37,199 nt of DNA from the IMG/VR virus record IMGVR_UViG_3300011830_000001, positions 62,001-99,199 of that record; one strand, written 5' to 3'. A program made the translations under genes and the position numbers. Source of the stretch: an uncultured virus (IMG/VR IMGVR_UViG_3300011830_000001) (lineage: Duplodnaviria > Heunggongvirae > Uroviricota > Caudoviricetes). Each line of letters starts with the position of its first letter. Within the stretch, counting starts at the first letter, position 1. The notes beneath the pieces are model-generated. The model was given only the letters and a program-made list of their open reading frames with translations. It did not search any database and had not been told where the DNA came from. This document shows positions 2,691-14,682 of this stretch, piece by piece.

Positions 2691-3047
2691 ATGGGCGACT
2701 TAAGTGCACACTTTTCTCGTAAGGAAATGGCCTGCCACTGCGGCTGCGGCTTTAATACCGTCAACCAGGCGTTGGTGGAAAAGCTGGAGGCGATCCGGGC
2801 GCACTTCGGTGCTCCGGTCATCGTTAACAGCGCCTGCCGCTGTCCAAAGCATAACGCCAGCCAGGGCGGCGCGGTGAAGTCTCAGCACGTTTTGGGTAAC
2901 GCTGCGGATATCAGGGTAAAAGGTTTTACGCCGAGCCAGGTGGCGGATTTTGTCGATAAGGCATGGCCTGACACGGGTGGTTTAGGGCGGTACCGGACAT
3001 TTACGCACGTCGATGTGCGCCCCCCGAAAGCCCGCTGGAATGGTTAG
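2691..3047 (+). CDS. Peptidase M15 family Zn peptidase, probable endolysin
   Basis: HFSRKEMACHCGC, SACRCPKHN, SQHVLGNAADI and FTHVDVR motifs; AAGGAG RBS. Confidence 0.88.
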   Translation: MGDLSAHFSRKEMACHCGCGFNTVNQALVEKLEAIRAHFGAPVIVNSACRCPKHNASQGGAVKSQHVLGNAADIRVKGFTPSQVADFVDKAWPDTGGLGRYRTFTHVDVRPPKARWNG

Positions 3048-3057
3048 TAGGGCTACT

Positions 3058-3110
3058 GGATCGGCAATCAGCCGATCCTCTGATGAGGGTTAAACCCCGT
3101 GTTTTTTTTA
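3058..3110 (+). terminator. Hairpins and T-run closing the late operon
   Basis: GGATCGGC-AATCA-GCCGATCC, then GGGT-TAA-ACCC followed by a T8 run. Confidence 0.5.
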
Positions 3111-3291
3111 ACCAATGACAGGGAAGTCATTATTTGAACAGCCAAAACATAAAAAAGCTTAAAGTAAGAATTAGTTTAGAGTAATTTTACTAAATGTCTG
3201 GATCGTAACAATGGTTCTGAACTAAGATGCTGGCGAGACGATCCTCGAACGGTTCGTTTTGGTTTGGTGAAATGGATTTAGCACCTTTCGG

Positions 3292-3436
3292 AAAAGAAAA
3301 AACCGCTGATTTGGCGTCAGCGGTTTCTCTGAAAGAGTAGTTTGACTTGGCGGTCAAACTGAGTGTTAAAACCATCGTCCCTGGGGAGGGAAAAACCACC
3401 AGACCAAGACGTATCTATGGGGAAGGGGGCTTCTTG
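3292..3436 (-). ncRNA. Candidate cis-antisense RNA (~145 nt) with two CGCCAA-loop hairpins
   Basis: Minus-strand promoter at 3443-3471; the final hairpin (3300-3326) is followed on the minus strand by a U-rich tract. Confidence 0.55.
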
Positions 3437-3442
3437 TCTCTG

Positions 3443-3471
3443 AGTTTATGAAAATAGCTCAGATGATGCAA
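3443..3471 (-). promoter_or_regulatory. Sigma70-like promoter for the antisense RNA
   Basis: Minus strand TTGCAT-N17-TAAACT. Confidence 0.6.
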
Positions 3472-4072
3472 ATTAAATCGCTAATCGAGTGCGAACTGAT
3501 TGCAATAAGCCCCTTACATCTCACGCTGAGCTGGGTGGAGGATAGTGTCACTGGCGGCTCGGCGGGGATTCCTGCAACCAGCGTGATCGACGGCAGGGGC
3601 GTAATGAGTTTCCAGGCAATGTGCCTGATGGTTAGCCGATAAATCTCGGAGTGCGAAGCGCGGATGTTGGGGAAACCCTCCTGCGAACTGCCGCGACCAT
3701 CACCGCAACCTGGTAGGTGCAAACGCTACGATGTGCCGCGATAGGGCATACTTGCACCAGCCACAGGGCTATCTCTTGATGTGGTACGTTTGACCGATTC
3801 CGAACGCCGAACGGCATGGATCTGTCCACGGCAGGACTTCCTTACCCTTAAGACCTTTTGTGTCTCGGGGTAGGGGAGTTTTTGACGTTATCCCTCAAAC
3901 CGACAACCGACAGCATGATCACCGACCGAGCCGGACGCAAAGACTGATGAGTGGCTTAAGAAAAAAATGAAATTTTTCAGGTCTAAATCAATCCGGATCT
4001 GCTATGGTATACGCCATTAGTGCTAAGACTGGTGAGAGAGTCTGGTACTAAGTTGAAACTAAACCTGGGGAA

Positions 4073-4564
4073 ATGAAGATGATTGCAGTAACAGTGAAGT
4101 CGAAAGGAAAGAGAACACGAGTGCTTGCGCTATCTGAACCAACAGCACCTAATCCTGATTTCTTACCATTTGAAAAAGTTAAGAACGGTATAACCTCAAA
4201 AGTATTTAAGCGAACACCGCGAAAAGAATATCCAGAAGAAAATGATTTAACTCACGCAATAAAAATTATTACTCCTATGACGCCTGTTAATGGCAAATCA
4301 AAGCACCATCAATATTGCGCTCAGGGCATATTTATTTATTCAGGGTCGAAGCAGCCCGAAGCCAGAGAGGACAAGCCCGTAGTGCTCTATTCCGAGCATG
4401 ACTACAGCCTCAAGCGTAACGACGTTATCCGTATTACTACTCCTGCTGAATTTGGTATAGAGCGCCTTGAGACTAAAATAAGAATCCATCTGGTTAATTC
4501 AGCAGAAGAAATATTTGATAATCACTGCGCTGTATTCTGGAATGAAGCGGTGAATGACAATTGA
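4073..4564 (+). CDS. Hypothetical protein, basic N-terminus
   Basis: 163-aa AT-rich ORF with GGGG RBS; upstream extended -10-like TGCTATGGT and a leader hairpin at 4017-4051. Confidence 0.7.
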   Translation: MKMIAVTVKSKGKRTRVLALSEPTAPNPDFLPFEKVKNGITSKVFKRTPRKEYPEENDLTHAIKIITPMTPVNGKSKHHQYCAQGIFIYSGSKQPEAREDKPVVLYSEHDYSLKRNDVIRITTPAEFGIERLETKIRIHLVNSAEEIFDNHCAVFWNEAVNDN

Positions 4565-4823
4565 AATGCAGTCATCAATCGAGCCGCCCATTAAATTATT
4601 GCCGTGCCCTTTTTGTGGCGCTGAACCAAATATACTCGTTGATTTCGGCGAAAGACAAAGCGATTGCTATTACATTGCTTGTACCAACACTGCTTGCCTT
4701 GTGGCTCCGATAACGCTGACCTTCCGGCGCTCACGCGTGGCCTGCCAGGCATGGAATCGCCGACCGGGTGAACCAGACCCGGCTCCGGTGGCGATAGGCC
4801 AGCGACCACGAAGCGTCACCTAA
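4554..4823 (+). CDS. Lar-family restriction alleviation Zn-finger protein
   Basis: LLPCPFCG...CTNTAC...AWNRR signature. Confidence 0.8.
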   Translation: MTIEMQSSIEPPIKLLPCPFCGAEPNILVDFGERQSDCYYIACTNTACLVAPITLTFRRSRVACQAWNRRPGEPDPAPVAIGQRPRSVT

Positions 4824-4853: not shown

Positions 4854-5867
4854 TTAGCTGAATTTCGGCGCTTTACCGCCGGGAACGGCTTTGCTCGGGC
4901 CGCTGATCACGGTGTAATTGCGCGGTAGCGGTTGCGAGCCACCCTGGCCCGGCAGCGGCGCACGCACAGACTCCAGCAGCGCCGACAGCACGCGGAAATC
5001 CTCTTCCGTGTTTAACGCCTCCAGAGCGGCCCGGTCAGCTTTGCCGAGGAAGACAGGCAGTTTACTGATAAAGGCCTGCTGCGCGGCAACACGACCCTCC
5101 TCGCTAGCCTGAGCAGTTTCCAGCATGGCCTTTGTCTTCTGGTAGTTGTTCGCCAGGTCGGCAATCATGCCGCTCATTTCAAACATGCGGGCACGGAGAG
5201 CCTCATTTTCGATAAGCGGGCTTTCAAACATCGCGTGCTGCACCATCTTTTCATAGTGCTGGGCGATATCGACGGCGGCGCTCTCGGTAAATCCGGCAGA
5301 TTTGCAGCGCTCAACGATCCGGGTCTCACGGTCGGCGGCGCTCTCCATCATAGGCGCGGGCTGTTTATTCAGGCTGATGAAATTCGGCGTGGTCACGTAG
5401 TCGAAGCCCTCAAACAGGGTGACGCGGGCTGCGCTCGCAGATTCGTAGCCGTCAGTAACCCATGACCAGCCGCCGACGCTCCCGGCCTCCATCGTGTTAA
5501 CCACGCGGCCTGGGTCGGTATCCAGGATCTCCTGCGTGTGGGTCACGATATCGCCATCAAGCTTGATATCCAGTGTGCGGGCGGCTGGCACGTTATTCAG
5601 CTGAATGATCTGCCCGTCCACGCGCATGATGGTGAACTCCGGCAGGCGCAGCTGCTGGTGCTCGTTATAATACATTTCCCGGCGACCGTGCCCGTAATAG
5701 CCGTACATTTCACCCAGCTCCATGCGCTCACGCGCGCGCGGGCTGGCGATGGCGTGCTGCACCGATTCCAGGATGTAATTGCGCCCGTTCTGCGGCGTGA
5801 ATTTGCGCTTAAGGTTACGCAGGGAGAATTTGTCTTGCGTCGTGCGGACGCCTTTTAAATGAGCCAT
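4854..5867 (-). CDS. pro: Capsid maturation (head-processing) protease
   Basis: MYGYYGHGRR, VTHTQEILDT, VGGWSW and GFDYVTTPNF motifs of P1 Pro; coupled to prt. Confidence 0.85.
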   Translation of the reverse strand: MAHLKGVRTTQDKFSLRNLKRKFTPQNGRNYILESVQHAIASPRARERMELGEMYGYYGHGRREMYYNEHQQLRLPEFTIMRVDGQIIQLNNVPAARTLDIKLDGDIVTHTQEILDTDPGRVVNTMEAGSVGGWSWVTDGYESASAARVTLFEGFDYVTTPNFISLNKQPAPMMESAADRETRIVERCKSAGFTESAAVDIAQHYEKMVQHAMFESPLIENEALRARMFEMSGMIADLANNYQKTKAMLETAQASEEGRVAAQQAFISKLPVFLGKADRAALEALNTEEDFRVLSALLESVRAPLPGQGGSQPLPRNYTVISGPSKAVPGGKAPKFS

Positions 5868-7609
5868 TACTCGGCCTCCTGAGAAAATGCCATCTTGATC
5901 AGGTTGAGTTTTTCCTGGTCGGTCATGTTGTCGATATCGAGATCCTTGAGCCAGTCCATATCTTCCGGCGCGGACTCCATGAAACCACTGCCGCCGCCAA
6001 AGCCGCCGCCGTGGCCTGAGCCGTCTGCTGGTGGTTTCGCGCTTTCGAATTCGCTGATCATGGCGTCAATGGTCTTCTGGTCTACCTTGAGCACACTGCC
6101 GAAGAGGTAGCTCATCATGGTTTTGCTGTTAGCGAGCTTGTAGTTGTCCTGGATCGCATCCAGCACGGTGACGACGAGCGAGATATAGTTAATCCGGCTG
6201 TCAGAATCGCGGTTTTCCTGCTCCTGAATGGCGGTATTCAGGGAGTTAAATTCAATACGGTACGGGCGCAGGGAGGCCGGATAAACCTTGCCGTATTTGT
6301 AGGCCAGGTGGATATCTATGATGCGGTAGATGGCTTCCTGTGCTGCCTTGCGGATCCACTCGGCACGAAGGGCAGACTGGATAGCCGTCTGTATAAATCC
6401 GCCTTCACCCAGCCCGCCGCTCATCTGGTCAGCCCATCCCAGCATGGTGTAGTCAACGCCGAGCGTAGAGGCCAGCTGACGCACCCACAACATAATATCC
6501 TCAATGCCGTTAATGTCGGCACTGACCTGCTGCGTATCGACTGTGATCCCACCCTTGCCATTCCCCATTACCGGAAGAACGTGGTTAATTACCGTCGGCA
6601 GGGCATTCATCATAGAGGCGTTGCGCTGGATAGAGTCCGTTGAGCGCTTAAGGGACTGCGTGATCTCGCGGGTATAGCGTGCGGCGTTTACCGGATCGAG
6701 TGTGTCCGTATTGACCGCGATCAGCCTGTCCTGTTTGCCCGTATTAAAGCGGTTCGCCAGCAGGGAATTGATCGCCTGATTCAGGTTGAACCACGGCTGG
6801 TAAGACGATTCCAGAAACGATGTGCCGTAGTTCTGCGTTTCAACCAGCGACTGACTATGGCGCGGGGAAAGGAGGCTGTATTCCTTGTTCGACCATGTTA
6901 CCGGGCGCAGCTTGTGGTTAGGCGTCCAGAATGGCACGCGCAGCGGCACCAGGATCCACGGGTCGGACAGTACGCGCTGCCCGCGCTCATCCAGAATGAA
7001 ATCCCCGGCGAAACCCGCCAGCATGCCTCCCTGATAGAACTCCTGAACGAAATGGGGAAGGGTGTAGTAGTTATTCTCGATGGATACCACGCCCTTACCA
7101 TGCTCGGCCTGCGGGCGCACGTAGGAGACGCCATAAATCATCATGGTCATACACCACGATGGCAGACCATCACTGAGCATATCCCCGAGATCAGCCATCA
7201 ACTCTTCACAGCGGGCCAGCGTCTCTTTGTCAGCGGCATCGACAGGGGCAAGGTTAAAGCAGCGGCGGGACTTTGTATCGACGCTCAGCGCGTGCGCCAG
7301 GTGGATGGTCAGTGCATCGTGGATCATTGGCGTTTTCGCCATTTTCTCAAGTAATGCATAGCGGGAGCGTCGCTCTAGCGGTAGCGCCTCCTGCATGTCC
7401 ACCTGATCGCCCACGCTTGCGAGCGGCTCCTGTGTCGCCGTCGGATTGAAATTTCTCAGCGTGGAGTGCGACACAATAGCGCCCGTCCCGATTGATGCAG
7501 TAAGCGGCAGCTGGCTGCTGCTGCGTCGCATACGGGTAGAGAATGGCGACATAATTTTCAGCAATGCTGATTTCGCAAACCACAGCTGATCTGTTTGGTT
7601 TTCAGCCAT
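5867..7609 (-). CDS. prt: Portal protein, P1 Prt-like
   Basis: 580 aa; ETQNYGTSFLE, ADINGIEDI, LGWADQMSGGLGEGG motifs; divergent from darB and upstream of pro as in P1. Confidence 0.85.
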   Translation of the reverse strand: MAENQTDQLWFAKSALLKIMSPFSTRMRRSSSQLPLTASIGTGAIVSHSTLRNFNPTATQEPLASVGDQVDMQEALPLERRSRYALLEKMAKTPMIHDALTIHLAHALSVDTKSRRCFNLAPVDAADKETLARCEELMADLGDMLSDGLPSWCMTMMIYGVSYVRPQAEHGKGVVSIENNYYTLPHFVQEFYQGGMLAGFAGDFILDERGQRVLSDPWILVPLRVPFWTPNHKLRPVTWSNKEYSLLSPRHSQSLVETQNYGTSFLESSYQPWFNLNQAINSLLANRFNTGKQDRLIAVNTDTLDPVNAARYTREITQSLKRSTDSIQRNASMMNALPTVINHVLPVMGNGKGGITVDTQQVSADINGIEDIMLWVRQLASTLGVDYTMLGWADQMSGGLGEGGFIQTAIQSALRAEWIRKAAQEAIYRIIDIHLAYKYGKVYPASLRPYRIEFNSLNTAIQEQENRDSDSRINYISLVVTVLDAIQDNYKLANSKTMMSYLFGSVLKVDQKTIDAMISEFESAKPPADGSGHGGGFGGGSGFMESAPEDMDWLKDLDIDNMTDQEKLNLIKMAFSQEAE

Positions 7610-7776: not shown

Positions 7777-10700
7777 ATGCCGTCGTTACGCGGCCTGTTT
7801 AGCGGGGCGCAATCCGTCGCGGATATTATTTCGACAATAAAATCCGCGCTGGTGAAGCGTACACCCGTTGAATATGGCGTTCGAAAAACCCCAGGCGTGT
7901 CTATGGCCCGCGCCCGCAAAGAGGCCAACCAGAAGGCAATTGACCTTCTTAATACCCTGACCCCAGGCCAGGCTCTTACCGACGAACAGCGCACCATTCT
8001 GGCGGGCTATACGGGTGAGGGTGGCATTGGTGGCAGTGAATACGAGTATTACACTCCGCAGCACGTTGCCGCTGGCATGTGGGACATGATGGCGCTTTAC
8101 GGCGCGGATACCGGGAACTGCCTGGAGCCGTCCGCCGGATCGGGCATCTTCCATGAAATGAAACCGCGTGGCGTGGTGATGACCGCTACCGAGATCAGCG
8201 AGGTATCCGGACGCATCAACCAGGCGCTGCACCCGGAGGACAGCGTAAAAATCGCGCCGTTCGAAATGCTGGCCCGCAACGCGCCGGATGACACCTTTGA
8301 CAGCGTGATCGGTAATATCCCGTTTGGGGCCAGCCGTGGCGGCTTTGCCCTGTACGATAAGGACTACGCCGACGAGACGAACATGGGCGCGTACTTTATC
8401 CTGCGCACGCTGGATAAGGTCAAGCCGGGCGGTATGTCCTGCCTGATCGTGCCGTTCGGTATGACCACGGGTAGCGATTACATTAAGCTGCGCCAGCGCG
8501 TCAGCCGCCGGGCGGAATTCCTCGGTGCTCATCGCCTGCCGTCCGGCACGTTCAACGAGAACGGCACCGCTACCGCCGTTGATATTTGGGTGCTGCGCAA
8601 ACACCCGGCGGACGTCGCCGATAAAATTCTGGAGCTGGACGAACAGACCGCCGAAGGCCTGAACGTGCTTTGGCCCGAATTTATCCAGGGCTTCTGGTTC
8701 AAACGCGAAGGTCGCCGCTTCATGCACGGTGAAGAGGAATGGCTGGGGGAGGGCAAATTCCGTCGCCTGACCATCCGCAACGACCAGATCACCAACGAGC
8801 AGATGCGCCAGGCGCTGTCTGTGCGCTTTGAATCCCGCATTGATTGGGCTGGCCTGAACTCGTCAGAGCCGTCTATCAGCCGGATGCAGGAAGGGGATAA
8901 GCGTTTTATGAACGGGCAGTGGTACCGGATGGAAGCGGGCCGCATGATCGTCGATAACACCGTTAATACCCTCGACCTCGATCCGACCGTTTACGGCGTC
9001 AGCCAGTACACTGACATTAAAACCCTCTTCCGCACGCCGCAGGGCATCCTGTCCCTGTCATTTGATGCCATCCGGGCCATCGCCCGCGATTACCCCGAGC
9101 AGATCCCCGACCAGTACACCCGCCTGCTGCAATTCGCCAACCGCCAGAAGCCGAAGGCGATGGAAAAAGCCTGGCGCGGGTCGGTCATCGGCCTCCAGAT
9201 TAGCGATCTGCAAGACCTGACCGCAAACCTCGGTACCGACTCCGATAACGTTCGCAACCTGAATATCGACGTGAAGAAGCTGGTGGGCCAGGAGCTGGAA
9301 AAATACGGCAACCCGAACAGCGGCGCGAAGGTGGAGATCTCCGGTACCGGAAACGGCCCGTGGCTGCGCTACAAATCGGCGATCACCGCCAATGGCGAGC
9401 TGTCAGAGCTGGTGAAAGGGAGCCTCGACCGCACCACGGGTGAAGCCTTTGACCTGACTGACCACGCGGAGACCGTCCGGTTCCTGTTTAACGATCTCAC
9501 CCTCGACCCTGTGAGCCTGGCAGACTTCCGGCGCAACTTCCGGGGCACGCTGCCGGAGAGTGATGCCGAACTGCTGGCGATGCTGGCGGGCCACAAAGAC
9601 ATTGCGATCACCGATACGGGTGAGCTGGCCCCGTTTGACCGGGCCACCAGCGGCAATATTGCCAGCCGCCTGGCAATGCTGCGCCTGTGCCTGGTAGGTA
9701 CCGAAGATGAGCGCCTCAAAACCAACTTCCACGCGCAGATCGCTGCCATCAAGGAAAAGCGTAAATGGACTGAGGCCGACCATATCCGGTTCAAGCTAAA
9801 CAGCCGCTGGATGAATCGCCGCCTGGTGCTGGAATTCCTGCTGGATCGCGGGTACGAGGAATTTAAGTACGTTGCGGACGTCCAGGTCGAAGACGGGAAG
9901 ATGGTTTCTGACGTCAACTACACGGGCAATGACGGCGTTTTCACCGGGTACCGCTACAAGACCGTCATGGAGAAGGAGAAAGACCCGGAGGGCGGCTATA
10001 CAGGGCGTACAGTACCGGTATTCAAGGCGTACACCCCGAAAGATCCGTTTGCACGTCAGTTAGAGAACTACATCAACGGCACTACCTACAGCCGCCAGTA
10101 TGCCGACCGCATGCATGCGCTGGAGGAAGATTTCAACGACTGGATGCGCCAGCATGATGAACTGGCCTCGACCGTTGAGCAGTACAACAGCGCGTTTAAC
10201 GCCTATATCCCGTTTGAGCACTCCGGCGCGAGCCTGGAGCTGAAAGGCATTAGCGGCTCCCGCGTGCCGATGAGCTACCAGAACAGTGAGGTTCGCCGGG
10301 TATCCGAAGACGGGCGCGGGATCATTGCTTTCGGTACCGGGCTGGGTAAAACCACGACCGCGCTGGCGCTGGAGGCCTACAACTTCGAAACCGGGCGTTG
10401 CAAACGTACTGCGTATGTCGTGCCAAAAGCCGTACTGGAAAACTGGTACCACGAAGCGCAGGGCTTCTATGCGCCAGCTGTGCTGGAAAACTTCCTGTTT
10501 GTTGGCCTCAACGAGCTGCGCGACGAGTCCGGCAACATCCGGCAGGTTCCCGCCCTCGATGAGAACGGCAACCCGAAACTGGACGCCAAAGGCGAGCCTG
10601 TCATGCGTAACGCCCTGGCGCTTGCCAGCAGCGAAGAAATCAAAGAACGCATGAACATGATCCCGCAGTCGAACTATCGCGCCGTGGTGCTCACCAAAGA

Positions 10701-13700
10701 GCAATATGCCGCTATCCCGCTGCGGGATGAAACCATTGAGGCGCACGCCTCAGATATCGTGTTTGCACAGGCCGAAGCGGGGCGCGTGAACCTGAACGGC
10801 AGCAAACACCGTGACGCGGCGAAGCTCAACAGCGTTAAGGCGAAGGCCAGCGATACGGGCACCAAAAAACAGGCCGATTTCCCGTACTTCGAGGATATGG
10901 GCTTTGACAGCGTGATCGTCGATGAGGGCCACAACTACCGCAACAGCTATAGCGCCGGGCGTGAAGCCGCTGCGCTCGCGTACCTGCCGACCGGGGCACA
11001 GGCCAAAAGCGCAAAGGATATGGCGATCAAAAACGCCTACCTGATGAAGAAGTACAACGGGCGCGGGCCAGTGCTGCTGACCGCCACGCCGCTCGTTAAC
11101 AGCCCGATTGACGCGTTTAACATGCTGTCTCACGTCGTGCCAATGGAAGAGTGGAAGAAGATGGGGATCCTCACCCCTGACGATTTCGTTAAGGTATTTG
11201 GCAAGACCGCCAATGTGCTGGTGCAGAAACTCTCCGGCGCGGTCGAAGAGAAAAACGGGCTGGTGGGCTTCGAGAACCTGGATGGTCTGCGCGGCATCTT
11301 CCACCGCTGGACGACCCTGAAAACGGCGAAAGACGTCTCTGCCGAGGTCAAGATCCCGGATGTGAAGGAGATTAATCAGGTAGTGCCGATGACCGACCTG
11401 CAACGGGACACCTACGAGGAACTCCGCACCCGCGCACAATATCTGTCAGAGAACCCGCCGACCGACGCCAACGGCAATCCTACCGTGCTGCTGGACAAAG
11501 ACGGGCAGCCTATCGAGCGCGATTCTATTTTTGCGATCATCCGCGATATGGACAGGGTATGTACTGACCCGGATCTGTATTACCGGGCCATCACGTTTAA
11601 TTTCCCGCTGGCGAAACTCGATGCCGTGACGCAGCTGCGCGACGACCTGCCGAAGGCCAGCGCCGCAGAGGATGACGAGGACGGCGACGAGGGCACCGCA
11701 GGCAATACCGATATCACCCTGCGCACCGATGACGATTACGCCATTCTCCGGGTACCAGAGACGCTGGAAAAAGACGTGCTGGCCCGGCTGGAAAAATTCG
11801 GCTTGGCGCTTAAGGATGTGAGCCATCCGATCCCGCCGAAGTACGCCATGCTGATCGAGCAGCTCCGTACCGGAATGGCGAACGGAGGCAAGCAGATCGT
11901 TTTCTCTGATGAGAAAAGCCAGCATGAGAAGCTTAAGCGCATCATCGCCGCCGCGCTGCCGCTGGATGCTGACAAAATCGGGATCCTGAACGCCACCACG
12001 GTCGCCGAAGCGGGCAAGGGCAAGAAGCCGAAGCGCGTGAAAGCACCGAAGCCGCTGGGCGACGAACCGACCAGCGAACAGCTGGAGACCTACTACCAGC
12101 AGAAACAGGCCTATGACGATTATCAGGCCGCGCTGAACGAGGTTTCCCTGGGTGGGCTGGAGCAGATCGCCGCCGACTACCAGGAAGGCCGCTACCGCAT
12201 CCTGATCTGCAACAAAAAGGCCGAGGTGGGGATCAACCTGCACCAGGGCACCAGCGATATGCACCACCTTACGCTCCCCTGGACGCCAGCCAGTATCGAC
12301 CAGCGCAACGGTCGCGGCGCACGTGTGGGCGGTACTCAGGACAGCGTGAACGCGCATTACTATTGCGGGCAGGGCAGCTTTGACGAATTCCACCTGGACA
12401 CCCTGAAACGTAAACGCAACTGGATCACCGATATCCTGACCTCTAACGAGTCCGCAATGGACAACGCCGACGCCAACACCACCGCTGAAATGCAGATGAT
12501 GCTGGCGGCGAACCCGGAGGAACGCGAGCGCCGTTTCAGAGAGGAACAGGAGCGCATTGCTGCCGAGAAGCGCAGCGCCGCGCAGAAGCGTGCCCGCCAG
12601 AACCTTACGCAGTTTGCCAAAGCGAAGCACGCCGCCGCCCACGGCAACCCGGATGAGGTCAACGCGCAGATCGCCCGCCTGCAACAGAACGCTATCGATT
12701 TCCAGGCCGACCTGGAAAAGTTGCGCAGCGCATCGGGCCGATATCAGGAAGGCGTGGATAAGGCCGCAGCCAGCCTTAAAAACCAGCAGGAAAGCGACCC
12801 CCGTAGCTACCTGGTGAGCCACTACAAAGGTCAGCTCAATAACGAGAAGGCCAGCCAGCGCGAGCACTTCAAGGAGATCGACGATAAGGTTAAAGAGCTG
12901 AACGATGCCCGTCTGAGTATTACACGCCGCCAGCGTATGCTGACCCGTATCCAGAAGGCCGCAACCACGATTAAGCAGCTGCGTCCCGAGCTGGCCCGCG
13001 CTATCAAAGACGGCGTGCTGGAAGGCCTCGATATGGACATGCTGGATCATGCTGATGAGTGCTATTTCGCGCCAAACGGCAAGGTTTACCGCAAGGGCCA
13101 GGTCTGGCAGGTACCAAACAAGCCAAACCAATACGACGTGTACCGGATCCGCGCTCTGGATATTGATAACGGGATGGCGACCGTTGAGCTGCTATGGTCT
13201 GACGACCGCAGCAAACCAACCGGGAAGCGGATTCCGCTGCCGACCAGCCAGCTGGGCACCCTGACCAGCTACACCGAAGATGAAGTAACGTTTATGGCGT
13301 GGCTGCGCCGCCGGGACGGTATCCCGATGGCGGAAATCATGGAGCGCCTGAGCGAATCCGATTTCCGTAAATACCTGGCCTCCGGGGATCTGCTGATCAA
13401 CGAAACGCAGATGCTGGTTGAGACCCCGAAAGGCTTCGACAACATCAAGCTGTTTGAGAGCCAGTACCAGGGCATAGGCCGCAGCACCCGCAGCATGGTC
13501 TACGGGGCGGCGGATGCAATTACGAAAAATGCGCAATACGTGGTGTGGCCCGACGGCAATGACGATCCGCTTAAGGCCCGTCTGGCTAAGGAATTTCTAC
13601 AGAAATCGTGGCTCGACCTGGCGAAAGGCTTCTTTGTGCTGCTGTATGGCAATGACTACAAGGTCAGCATTAAGAACTTCGGCGATCAGGCCAGCCCTGC

Positions 13701-14682
13701 GGAAGTGGAGCAGATCGTAAAAGAGACCTGGGATAAAGCAGTCTCCGACATGAGCGGCACCATTCAGGGGTTTGAGCCGGACGGATCCGGGCGGGGCCAG
13801 ACAGACGCGTGGATCGTGCATCGCAGTTATGACCAGCGCCTGACTGATGGCGTCGCCGCGTACCTGCGCCGGAAATCGTGGGGCGAGCGTACCGGATACA
13901 GCAACGAAAATGACTTCATCCGGGCATACGAAACGCTTCGCGTAAACGACGTGGAGCGGATCCGCCAGGGAATGCTGGTGGCGGTCGATGAGCTGGGCCA
14001 GGAGGCTATGCGCTGGTTTGAGAAGGAAGAGGGTGCAATGCAACGCGCAGGGCTGGAGGTTGTACGCGGGCTGACGCTGCCGCGCTTCGATCTGAACTTC
14101 CTGCACGGTAAAGGCAATGACCTGCTGGCCTATGCTGAACTCTTTGCGACGGCTGCGGGCGTCGGCCTCATTGACCCGGCAACCATCGGGCCGGATTCAT
14201 TTACCGACGGTCCAGGGCTGCGCCAGCGCCAGATTCAGGCCATCAACGACGCCTACGCCGCTGAAATGGCTAAGCCGGAAGACCAGCGCTTTACAGAGAC
14301 CCGGATCCGGGTAGGGGAGATCACCGCTGCTGATGCCGCCGCTATCGTCCAGAAAGCGAAGGATGACGCGCAGGCCGAACAGGATCAGCGTGCCGCTCTG
14401 GTACAGCAAAAGACCGCTGCGATCACCAGTAAGGAAAACACCGGAGTAATGCGCTGCGGCTACGGGCGGAACAAGAAGAATTTCGACGCGGGCGAGCTGC
14501 TTTGCTTCATGGACAAAGAAGGTCTCAAAGGCGTGCTGTGCGCCCATAAGGACGTGCTTAAAGCCCAATATGGGGCGCTGTATTACAAAGGTGAGCCAGA
14601 GGACGAGTGCCCTGGTTCGTGGTGGGTTATTCCGAAGGCAAATGCCACCCTGGAACAAATCTACGGCATTCTGAACAGTTAA
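7777..14682 (+). CDS. darB: DarB antirestriction protein (adenine methyltransferase + SF2/SNF2 helicase)
   Basis: 2301 aa; EANQKAIDLLN..GYTGEGGIGGS..EYYTP, LEPSAGSG, GNIPF, Walker A GTGLGKT, DEGH, LTATP, QRNGRGAR. Confidence 0.95.
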   Translation: MPSLRGLFSGAQSVADIISTIKSALVKRTPVEYGVRKTPGVSMARARKEANQKAIDLLNTLTPGQALTDEQRTILAGYTGEGGIGGSEYEYYTPQHVAAGMWDMMALYGADTGNCLEPSAGSGIFHEMKPRGVVMTATEISEVSGRINQALHPEDSVKIAPFEMLARNAPDDTFDSVIGNIPFGASRGGFALYDKDYADETNMGAYFILRTLDKVKPGGMSCLIVPFGMTTGSDYIKLRQRVSRRAEFLGAHRLPSGTFNENGTATAVDIWVLRKHPADVADKILELDEQTAEGLNVLWPEFIQGFWFKREGRRFMHGEEEWLGEGKFRRLTIRNDQITNEQMRQALSVRFESRIDWAGLNSSEPSISRMQEGDKRFMNGQWYRMEAGRMIVDNTVNTLDLDPTVYGVSQYTDIKTLFRTPQGILSLSFDAIRAIARDYPEQIPDQYTRLLQFANRQKPKAMEKAWRGSVIGLQISDLQDLTANLGTDSDNVRNLNIDVKKLVGQELEKYGNPNSGAKVEISGTGNGPWLRYKSAITANGELSELVKGSLDRTTGEAFDLTDHAETVRFLFNDLTLDPVSLADFRRNFRGTLPESDAELLAMLAGHKDIAITDTGELAPFDRATSGNIASRLAMLRLCLVGTEDERLKTNFHAQIAAIKEKRKWTEADHIRFKLNSRWMNRRLVLEFLLDRGYEEFKYVADVQVEDGKMVSDVNYTGNDGVFTGYRYKTVMEKEKDPEGGYTGRTVPVFKAYTPKDPFARQLENYINGTTYSRQYADRMHALEEDFNDWMRQHDELASTVEQYNSAFNAYIPFEHSGASLELKGISGSRVPMSYQNSEVRRVSEDGRGIIAFGTGLGKTTTALALEAYNFETGRCKRTAYVVPKAVLENWYHEAQGFYAPAVLENFLFVGLNELRDESGNIRQVPALDENGNPKLDAKGEPVMRNALALASSEEIKERMNMIPQSNYRAVVLTKEQYAAIPLRDETIEAHASDIVFAQAEAGRVNLNGSKHRDAAKLNSVKAKASDTGTKKQADFPYFEDMGFDSVIVDEGHNYRNSYSAGREAAALAYLPTGAQAKSAKDMAIKNAYLMKKYNGRGPVLLTATPLVNSPIDAFNMLSHVVPMEEWKKMGILTPDDFVKVFGKTANVLVQKLSGAVEEKNGLVGFENLDGLRGIFHRWTTLKTAKDVSAEVKIPDVKEINQVVPMTDLQRDTYEELRTRAQYLSENPPTDANGNPTVLLDKDGQPIERDSIFAIIRDMDRVCTDPDLYYRAITFNFPLAKLDAVTQLRDDLPKASAAEDDEDGDEGTAGNTDITLRTDDDYAILRVPETLEKDVLARLEKFGLALKDVSHPIPPKYAMLIEQLRTGMANGGKQIVFSDEKSQHEKLKRIIAAALPLDADKIGILNATTVAEAGKGKKPKRVKAPKPLGDEPTSEQLETYYQQKQAYDDYQAALNEVSLGGLEQIAADYQEGRYRILICNKKAEVGINLHQGTSDMHHLTLPWTPASIDQRNGRGARVGGTQDSVNAHYYCGQGSFDEFHLDTLKRKRNWITDILTSNESAMDNADANTTAEMQMMLAANPEERERRFREEQERIAAEKRSAAQKRARQNLTQFAKAKHAAAHGNPDEVNAQIARLQQNAIDFQADLEKLRSASGRYQEGVDKAAASLKNQQESDPRSYLVSHYKGQLNNEKASQREHFKEIDDKVKELNDARLSITRRQRMLTRIQKAATTIKQLRPELARAIKDGVLEGLDMDMLDHADECYFAPNGKVYRKGQVWQVPNKPNQYDVYRIRALDIDNGMATVELLWSDDRSKPTGKRIPLPTSQLGTLTSYTEDEVTFMAWLRRRDGIPMAEIMERLSESDFRKYLASGDLLINETQMLVETPKGFDNIKLFESQYQGIGRSTRSMVYGAADAITKNAQYVVWPDGNDDPLKARLAKEFLQKSWLDLAKGFFVLLYGNDYKVSIKNFGDQASPAEVEQIVKETWDKAVSDMSGTIQGFEPDGSGRGQTDAWIVHRSYDQRLTDGVAAYLRRKSWGERTGYSNENDFIRAYETLRVNDVERIRQGMLVAVDELGQEAMRWFEKEEGAMQRAGLEVVRGLTLPRFDLNFLHGKGNDLLAYAELFATAAGVGLIDPATIGPDSFTDGPGLRQRQIQAINDAYAAEMAKPEDQRFTETRIRVGEITAADAAAIVQKAKDDAQAEQDQRAALVQQKTAAITSKENTGVMRCGYGRNKKNFDAGELLCFMDKEGLKGVLCAHKDVLKAQYGALYYKGEPEDECPGSWWVIPKANATLEQIYGILNS

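Follow-up and report, generated by a model that had tools for sequence, protein, structure and literature searches.

A probable divergent ColE1-type replication-origin module in the longest gap of a P1-like phage-plasmid

The longest stretch without a supported gene in the genome of an uncultured phage-plasmid related to P1 probably represents a divergent replication-origin module of the ColE1 type, in which theta replication would be primed by RNA. The genome is an IMG/VR virus record of 99,199 bp with direct terminal repeats (IMGVR_UViG_3300011830_000001), and its bases 62,001-99,199 form the stretch of 37,199 nt analysed here (hereafter the window; positions refer to it unless the genome is named). 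An initial annotation had pointed to the only ~1-kb gap in this gene-dense element and proposed that positions 3200-3935 encode an undescribed large non-coding RNA (ncRNA) of the + strand, comparable to GOLLD and ROOL, with scaffold, ribozyme and replication primer as guesses at its function. The gap itself was borne out: 3048-4072 (1025 nt) is the longest such stretch of the 99-kb genome and is followed by stretches of 689 and 503 nt, in a ranking by crude tiling of open reading frames (ORFs) that leaves two - strand ORFs (69 and 87 aa) without family match inside it. An undescribed RNA similar to GOLLD or ROOL was not, considering that no Rfam family matched at threshold and that small plasmids have homologues of the region in their RNA II regions, which favours the replication primer among the three guesses. 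The folded region is thus best explained, judging from these comparisons, as no new RNA class, and what is unusual is the host element in which a ColE1-type origin appears to reside.

Homologues of the gap were found only among small plasmids. A blastn search of 3050-4075 with settings for distant sequences against INPHARED phages and PLSDB at an E-value of 1e-5 revealed no homologues, and a relaxed E-value limit against PLSDB gave only three plasmids, namely Aeromonas pAerIX (NZ_MK962689; 3,002 bp; 72% identity over 103 nt), Raoultella ornithinolytica pWP3-W18-ESBL-06_14 (NZ_AP021997; 2,437 bp; 78% over 58 nt; hereafter the Raoultella plasmid) and pEMB3 (KJ631730; 9,344 bp; 83% over 42 nt), with a common block at window 3636-3694. 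In all three the shared block lies within a long unannotated non-coding stretch. An nhmmer profile of the non-coding regions of the three plasmids gave one strong match over the 99-kb genome, at window 3630-3797 on the + strand (E 4e-13), and two further matches (E ~5e-4) that are terminator-like hairpins. Within the gap, a second colinear + strand match (3287-3336, profile 39-81, E 0.028) covers the 5' hairpin, and extra + strand matches averaged 0.07 per run in 100 flank-shuffled controls. MAFFT alignment suggested three further colinear blocks, none of them significant individually: GGGTGGAGGA...GTGAC (~3533-3560), GACCGA with a small GCC-GAAC-GGC hairpin (3793-3815), and, at 3835-3900, a large hairpin, then TAGGG(T)GAG and a pyrimidine tract. 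Compared with the plasmids, the window has ~60-100 nt of extra sequence in two places.

These plasmids carry RNA I. The Rfam RNAI model (RF00106) matches all three of them in full length (model 1-102), in each case on the strand complementary to the window-like one (41.5, 36.8 and 35.3 bits; E 4.7e-5 to 1.3e-3), and each match falls on a hairpin that precedes the shared block by 305-340 nt. The RNA I region of pAerIX is 75% identical (E 5e-14) to Aeromonas sobria pJF2635-1, a plasmid described as a ColE1-like replicon (PMC5727048); RNAI scores 69.4 bits in pJF2635-1, above the gathering score of 47, and 73.8 bits in ColE1. pAerIX and the Raoultella plasmid have no recognised initiator among their annotated proteins, which comprise relaxases (MobV/MobC family) and small proteins. 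A 79-aa protein of pAerIX (2668-2907) named 'RepB' is only faintly similar to ParC (22.8 bits), and a 52-aa 'replication initiation protein' has been auto-annotated inside the RNA II of ColE1 (784-942); both names look unreliable. On sequence grounds, the RNAI matches, the chain through pJF2635-1 and the lack of a recognised initiator mark pAerIX and the Raoultella plasmid as RNA-primed replicons, to whose RNA II strand the window aligns. The comparison gives homology and colinearity between the gap and, on a defined strand, the RNA II regions of the three plasmids with RNA I, but not with the RNA II of ColE1 itself.

A central domain of 81 nt (window 3624-3704, + strand) was aligned with its three plasmid counterparts and forms four nested helices with 18 pairs, comprising an outer helix, a CCGA/TCGG hairpin, a CGCGG/CTGCG helix and a GAAA-capped GGG/CCC hairpin. 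In this alignment of four sequences, two of which are 94% identical in the domain, 58 of 60 cells (96.7%) hold standard pairs, compared with 35-56% after a shift of the 3' partners by 1-3 columns. Changes on both sides are seen in four pairs (6 cells), and the covariation score was reached by 2 of 500 shuffles. The compensatory hairpin reads CCGA/TCGG, CCAG/CTGG or CCGC/GCGG and the compensatory helix CGCGG/CTGCG, CGCCG/CGGTG or CACAG/CTGTG; the covarying pairs include G-U states, and the GGG-GAAA-CCC hairpin is invariant across the four sequences. The covariation supports, and does not prove, a conserved RNA II structure. A covariance model of the domain (R1), of which the window sequence is a part, scored 95.2 bits at 3624-3704 and at most 11.5 bits elsewhere in the window, and had no matches over 151 Enterobacteriaceae genomes. 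A diverged copy of the central motif (corresponding to window 3647-3687) was observed in a contig from a wastewater run, with flanks similar to those of the Raoultella plasmid and pEMB3, so this RNA II sub-lineage has further environmental members.

Conservation of this kind could also be expected of a structured ncRNA with a non-priming function (scaffold, ribozyme or regulator), common to the phage and a few plasmids and merely adjoining RNA I genes. The conserved GNRA-capped hairpin with its covarying helices and the strong fold z-scores described below would fit such an RNA, as would the fact that the central domain was not found in ColE1, pJF2635-1 or L164. However, the region is the sole long non-coding stretch of pAerIX and the Raoultella plasmid, and since no initiator is recognised among their annotated proteins it must contain their origin; in addition, its start coincides exactly with the 3' end of RNA I, which is also true of RNA II, and it matches no Rfam family. 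We therefore consider a non-priming function quite unlikely.

The arrangement of elements resembles that of the ColE1/pMB1 origin, whose RNA I, an antisense RNA of ~100-110 nt with three stem-loops that covers the 5' end of the primer, is represented by RF00106. A predicted RNA II-like pre-primer of ~600 nt would be encoded on the + strand from ~3292 to ~3900 (ends approximate), as indicated by the blocks colinear with pAerIX, the Raoultella plasmid and pEMB3 and by the profile matches. Like its ColE1 counterpart it would be long and structured and would start at a hairpin that also serves a short antisense RNA as its terminator. The putative RNA I-like antisense RNA is placed on the - strand at ~3405-3294, its 5' end by alignment to the plasmids and ColE1, and includes a weak RF00106 match (3367 to 3294, - strand) from which the middle hairpin of the model is deleted. 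This match has the same place and orientation as the full-length plasmid matches, ~350 nt upstream of the shared block. Hairpin I of the candidate RNA II (3300-3326; 11-bp stem), which is followed by TTTTTTCTTTT on the - strand, aligns with the terminal hairpin of the RNAI model and with the equivalent plasmid hairpins, and would thus correspond to the RNA I terminator hairpin. Hairpin II (3338-3361), present in both the minimum free energy (MFE) and centroid structures, aligns with the first hairpin of the RNAI model. Further downstream, a + strand stem with two enclosed hairpins (3420-3515; arms 3424-3436 and 3503-3515) has a 3' arm that aligns with the GTTACC arm of a long stem in the plasmids, and is followed by the central domain.

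At the 3' end of the window module, pAerIX, the Raoultella plasmid and ColE1, a large hairpin with unrelated stem sequences occupies the same relative position just before a pyrimidine tract. In the window this is the + strand hairpin 3835-3883 (14 bp, 4 G-U), which runs into TTTTT; it lies ~580 nt from the 5' hairpin, and the distance from the RNAI end to the 3' hairpin is ~520-560 nt in pAerIX, the Raoultella plasmid and ColE1. Beyond it, TCCCTCAAAC (3891-3900, + strand), aligned by eye with TCCCTCAAGC of pAerIX and located ~600 nt from the probable RNA II start, is a candidate for the neighbourhood of the RNA-to-DNA switch. We infer the RNA ends, promoters and switch point of the module from such alignments. 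The elements follow one another as they do in ColE1, with a large hairpin just before the presumed switch point and no initiator gene in the module. By analogy, the fold of the pre-primer may keep the RNA hybridised to its template near the 3' end, where host RNase H would cut the hybridised primer and DNA polymerase I would extend it, and the RNA I-like antisense RNA, ending at the strong hairpin and T-run, may restrain primer maturation. Transcription, the ends of the RNAs, R-loop priming and present-day activity are likewise what we infer from the resemblance.

Folding energies are consistent with an RNA of the + strand. Comparison with shuffled sequences, by which the initial annotation had proposed to check its reading, came out in its favour: the MFE of 3200-3935 (736 nt) is -284.5 kcal/mol on the + strand (z -4.42) and -242.2 kcal/mol on the - strand (z -3.69; 20 shuffles each). 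Against a genome background of 134 non-overlapping 736-nt windows, folded on both strands with energy regressed on GC, the + strand of the interval has the lowest value (z -2.8), three other windows reach -2.5 to -2.75, and its - strand is at +0.13. The interval as a whole is structured and strand-asymmetric, yet not spectacular. Its sub-domain 3250-3415 has z-scores of -7.23 (+) and -5.86 (-), equalled by none of 200 shuffles, and 3292-3900 folds with a z-score of -3.65. The claim of a + strand RNA is therefore supported both by homology, which places the sense of the primer RNA on this strand, and by the far better folding of the + strand.

Since both strands of 3250-3415 fold far better than shuffles, a DNA-level element, such as a single-strand initiation or primosome assembly site, a recombination site or bidirectional terminators, might be proposed, in which case the inverted repeats would fold equally as DNA and no long RNA would matter. 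Hairpin 3300-3326 is indeed a good - strand terminator, and hairpin 3835-3880 runs into T5. However, the asymmetry of 42 kcal/mol between the strands (z -2.8 versus +0.13 on the genome background), the G-U states among the covarying pairs and the homology, which is to a transcribed primer region, make such an element highly improbable.

All ten helices that the initial annotation had listed by hand exist as complementarities, eight of them perfect with the G-U counts given and two with one mismatch, but three of the ten are thermodynamically unsupported. In the ensemble of 3200-3935, mean pair probability is 0.96 for the perfect helix 3255-3269/3397-3411, 0.90 for 3272-3284/3363-3375 (one mismatch), 0.96 for 3835-3848/3867-3880 (14 bp, 4 G-U), 0.76 for the GGG-GAAA-CCC hairpin, 0.70 for 3424-3436/3503-3515 (one mismatch) and 0.59 for 3716-3722/3752-3758; helix 3626-3633/3695-3702 has 0.23, and 0.54 when 3292-3905 is folded. 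Values are low for 3200-3206/3238-3244 (0.10) and 3569-3575/3593-3599 (0.07). The pair probability of 3540-3550/3883-3893 is 0.00, and therefore this helix, which had been proposed to close a domain of ~330 nt, is unsupported. As for the limits of the interval 3200-3935, its left 90 nt (3200-3290) fall outside the homology-supported RNA.

In the 37,199-nt window there were no Rfam matches at gathering score, including GOLLD, ROOL, HEARO, group I/II introns, RNase P and tmRNA, and ARAGORN found no tRNA or tmRNA genes, in agreement with the initial annotation, which had recognised no group I/II intron, tmRNA or RNase P core. At E<=10, only four chance-level Rfam matches were obtained in 3000-4100, the best of which was RNAI. 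GOLLD, ROOL and other large phage RNAs share a similar size range and a phage context with the region; none of them matched 3000-4100 even at E<=10, and the homologues of the region are plasmid origins. The gap contains no iterons. That the gap consists of small protein genes with incidental folding is scarcely credible: four ORFs exist (64 aa on the + strand; 87, 69 and 65 aa on the - strand), but they match no Pfam, PHROG or NCBIfam family and a coding reading of them was dropped, the conserved block is unannotated in all three plasmids, the alignment has gaps of 1, 2 and 3 columns, and the 87-aa ORF begins with TTG.

Several observations weigh against a ColE1-type origin, or at least against an intact one. 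With nhmmer, the RNA II of ColE1 shows no similarity to either the phage or the three plasmids, and model R1 finds nothing in ColE1; therefore, the link to ColE1 is transitive, via RNA I and architecture. The RNAI scores of the three bridging plasmids are below the Rfam gathering score of 47. Only three effectively independent lineages (the window, pAerIX and Raoultella/pEMB3) are available, so the covariation is thin. RNAI is weak in the window (20.4 bits, E 0.39, two of the three hairpins of the model), and a six-sequence RNA I profile misses the RNA I-like unit of the window. No + strand sigma-70-like promoter of at least 9/12 was found in 2900-4200. Where the plasmids have readable RNA II promoters (TTGATC or TTGACG, 17 nt, then TAAGCT, TATTTT or TAATCT), the window has none immediately upstream of hairpin I, the aligned hexamers being TTCGTT and TTTAGC, and its equivalent of the RNA I promoter is weak (GAGACA-17-TAGATA).

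The control region itself also differs. The homologues have three separate control hairpins, whereas the window lacks hairpin III and has instead a 28-bp clamp (three G-U pairs, one mismatch), which encloses hairpins I and II. Its 5' arm (3255-3284, + strand) pairs with its 3' arm (3363-3411, + strand, interrupted by a small hairpin at 3378-3391) with a probability of 0.90-0.96 and overlaps the position of the plasmid RNA II promoter. The clamp is absent from pAerIX, the Raoultella plasmid, pEMB3 and ColE1, and its 5' arm lies upstream of the putative RNA II start. Because it uses upstream sequence and is absent in the homologues, either the 5' end of RNA II is elsewhere or the control region has been rearranged. 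In addition, the divergence of the region in the phage variant X2 (3.4%) is not lower than that of the flanking genes (2.4-5.6%). X2 has six substitutions in 3263-3290, far denser than elsewhere (2-6%); five are in the 5' arm of the clamp (3263, 3273, 3276, 3278 and 3281), and four of the six are also found in the variant X3.

These misfits leave two readings open, namely a decaying relic, or a module with a rebuilt 5' control region fed by another promoter. The former supposes that a small ColE1-like plasmid fused with the phage-plasmid and lost its mobilisation genes, leaving a silent origin whose fold is inherited rather than maintained. The poor RNA II and RNA I promoter-equivalents, the missing third control hairpin with the promoter region replaced by a clamp arm, the low RNAI score, the divergence of X2 with its cluster of substitutions, and the presence of another origin in the phage (see below) would all agree with an inert relic, and an AT-rich orphan ORF next door gives the interval the look of a cargo dump. 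On the other hand, the whole ~600-nt module retains its colinearity with the plasmids and has intact helices, it has been kept in three phage lineages of different sample types, the clamp pairing is kept through three G-U pairs and one mismatch, and in X3 positions 3567-4031 are far less diverged (0.4%) than the flanks (1.9-4.4%). An inert relic is thus possible, though we hold it with some doubt; given a ColE1-type identity, the chances that the module still fires and that it is decaying appear about equal.

It is also conceivable, though unlikely, that a captured ColE1-type module was re-wired as a phage-controlled origin for lytic or copy-up replication, in a P1 relative without recognisable RepL or lytic origin (oriL). 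RNA II would then be transcribed from an upstream phage promoter, for which a weak candidate, TTAAAG-17-TAATTT, lies at ~3155-3190, and the 28-bp clamp would belong to the 5' end of this RNA. By hiding the antisense target and replacing hairpin III, the clamp might free the primer from copy-number control. The AT-rich leader left of the module also contains a - strand promoter-like site, TTGTTA-16-TAAAAT (9/12; 3184-3211), and the palindrome AGTAATTTTACT (3180-3191). The palindrome was tried as a recurrent late-promoter box and rejected, with one further genome copy only, which has one mismatch, and a word at 3185 resembling the P1 C1 operator was dropped as a single occurrence in the genome.

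In contigs from three sample types the folded region is flanked by the same phage genes, which excludes an assembly chimera. Further searches for it or its parts gave no homologues. By nhmmer and blastn, the gap had none among 131 P1/D6-like loci around Pro homologues (80 viral, 7 genome and 44 metagenome loci, a set that does not include the closer Pro relatives P0003-P0008, 52-57% identical), and the six-sequence RNA I profile found nothing within 8 kb of pro in these loci. By blastn, 3290-3905 had none in 5,426 complete Escherichia coli genomes. Exact-pattern scans of IMG/VR with a 30-mer and a 19-nt core motif found nothing, in a search from which the window's own or near records were perhaps excluded. 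A motif scan of 401 Enterobacteriaceae genomes found no exact match and 20 one-mismatch chromosomal matches, compared with 8 for the reversed control; we read the 20 as mostly chance. For the stretch itself, no RNA sequencing run is listed. A wastewater run labelled RNA-Seq and flagged 'probably DNA' contained two identical 150-nt contigs (3408-3557 and 3588-3737) without flanks, which were not counted as expression. When the ColE1 origin was compared by blastn with 50,697 phage records, 10 matched, mostly vectors or plasmid-sized records and none P1-like. Copies 92-96% identical to the ColE1 origin occur in Salmonella phage seszw (MZ375336.1, 31463-32029) and Escherichia virus TH38 (MT446410.1, 872-1320), and could be vector contamination or natural capture.

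By its gene content, the element that hosts the probable ColE1-type module is a distant relative of P1 and D6. It combines P1-type virion and Dar genes with plasmid replication and partition genes, and the initial view of it as a P1-like phage-plasmid was confirmed by DarB, Pro, portal, DdrA/B, Hdf, Ulx, PmgB/C/G/S, a Lpa-like protein, a Cre-like integrase, Rep_3 and ParM. To the left of the gap, the window encodes a DdrB-like protein (68-2365) and, on the + strand, an endolysin of the M15 peptidase family (2691-3047; Pfam PF08291, 8.1e-27; phrog_894). To its right is an orphan AT-rich + strand ORF of 163 aa (ORF163, 4073-4564; GC 0.38-0.42), which matches no Pfam, PHROG or NCBIfam family and whose sole match among 5.8 billion database clusters is its own cluster. 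It adjoins a gene for a Lar-like restriction-alleviation protein (4554-4823) in the same variable interval as the origin module, and the head protease Pro (4854-5867, - strand), the portal (5867-7609, - strand) and DarB (7777-14682) follow. Pro shares no more than 45% identity with D6/Citrobacter-type proteins and 36% with that of P1; its nearest database relatives (52-57%) are from Enterobacter hormaechei and Citrobacter portucalensis. Outside the window, the genome encodes DdrA, Hdf, Ulx, PmgB/C/G/S, a Lpa-like activator, the Cre-like integrase, HicAB and a ParM-type partition ATPase. A 1,861-aa invasin/intimin-like protein with Big_1 and Invasin_D3 Ig-like repeats (Pfam 2.3e-84 and 1.5e-45; genome 36,203-41,788) is perhaps a fibre or decoration protein.

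The phage-plasmid has its own protein-dependent origin, which consists of a Rep_3 initiator of 243 aa (Rep3_N and Rep3_C; Pfam Rep3_N 5.7e-18; genome 30,620-31,351, - strand) and, adjoining its gene, seven copies of a 22-nt iteron with a spacing of 22-23 nt and an AT-rich TTATTACT repeat (genome 30,620-31,931). RepL (PF05732) was not recognised, the best score of 11.1 bits being under the cut-off, and no replicative helicase was recognised among the scanned ORFs, many of which have no assignment. The actin-like partition ATPase is of the ParM/StbA type (L136:5653-6711), and the HicA/HicB-like toxin-antitoxin pair is at L136:3201-3796. Considering that the element has a Rep_3/iteron origin, the ColE1-type module is therefore a second replicon or the remnant of one. 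On the favoured explanation, it would be a second, plasmid-derived replicon in the variable interval between the endolysin gene and pro, beside the Rep_3/iteron origin and the ParM gene.

P1 has two replicons, a plasmid origin with RepA and a lytic origin with RepL, is partitioned by a ParA/ParB system, and is not known, to our knowledge, to carry an RNA-primed origin. The host element is similar to P1 in its virion, Dar anti-restriction, Lpa and Cre-like genes and differs from it in its Rep_3 initiator with iterons and in the lack of a recognised RepL. The proposed module differs from ColE1 in having no detectable primary-sequence similarity to its RNA II, an RNAI match of merely 20.4 bits, a clamp around hairpins I and II in place of hairpin III, poor promoter-equivalents, and a location in a 99-kb phage-plasmid rather than a small plasmid. 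With pAerIX, the Raoultella plasmid and pEMB3 it shares direct homology of the RNA II body (72-83% over 42-103 nt), block order, the covarying central domain and the 3' hairpin, although these plasmids are of 2.4-9.3 kb, their promoter hexamers for RNA II and RNA I are clear, and their three control hairpins are separate.

Extrachromosomal prophages with RNA-based replication have been described for cluster A mycobacteriophages, where they are presented as the first systems of this kind (Wetzel et al. 2020, PMC7157519). They resemble the present case in the extrachromosomal prophage and in a non-coding RNA from the replication region for which no Rep protein is needed; they differ in being actinobacterial and in that the RNA system is the sole prophage replicon, at 1-2 copies, whereas here a Rep_3/iteron replicon is present as well (PMC7157519). 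In the consulted parts of the literature on phage-plasmids with ColE1-like or RNA II replicons (including PMC11252172), we found no ColE1-type origin reported for a P1-like element.

The usual classification of phage-plasmids relies on protein-based replicons, and a gene-less RNA-primed origin escapes such typing; the one proposed here was detected neither by Rfam nor by blastn at default thresholds. The window, pAerIX and Raoultella/pEMB3 define an RNA II sub-lineage that is poorly sampled and whose conserved, GNRA-capped central domain could be added to RNA family libraries. If active, the module would provide a 99-kb P1-like prophage with a second replicon dependent on host enzymes, with possible effects on copy number, on incompatibility with small plasmids and perhaps on host range, and would be direct evidence that phage-plasmids exchange origins with small ColE1-like plasmids. 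Even as a relic, it would mark a past fusion between a plasmid and a phage.

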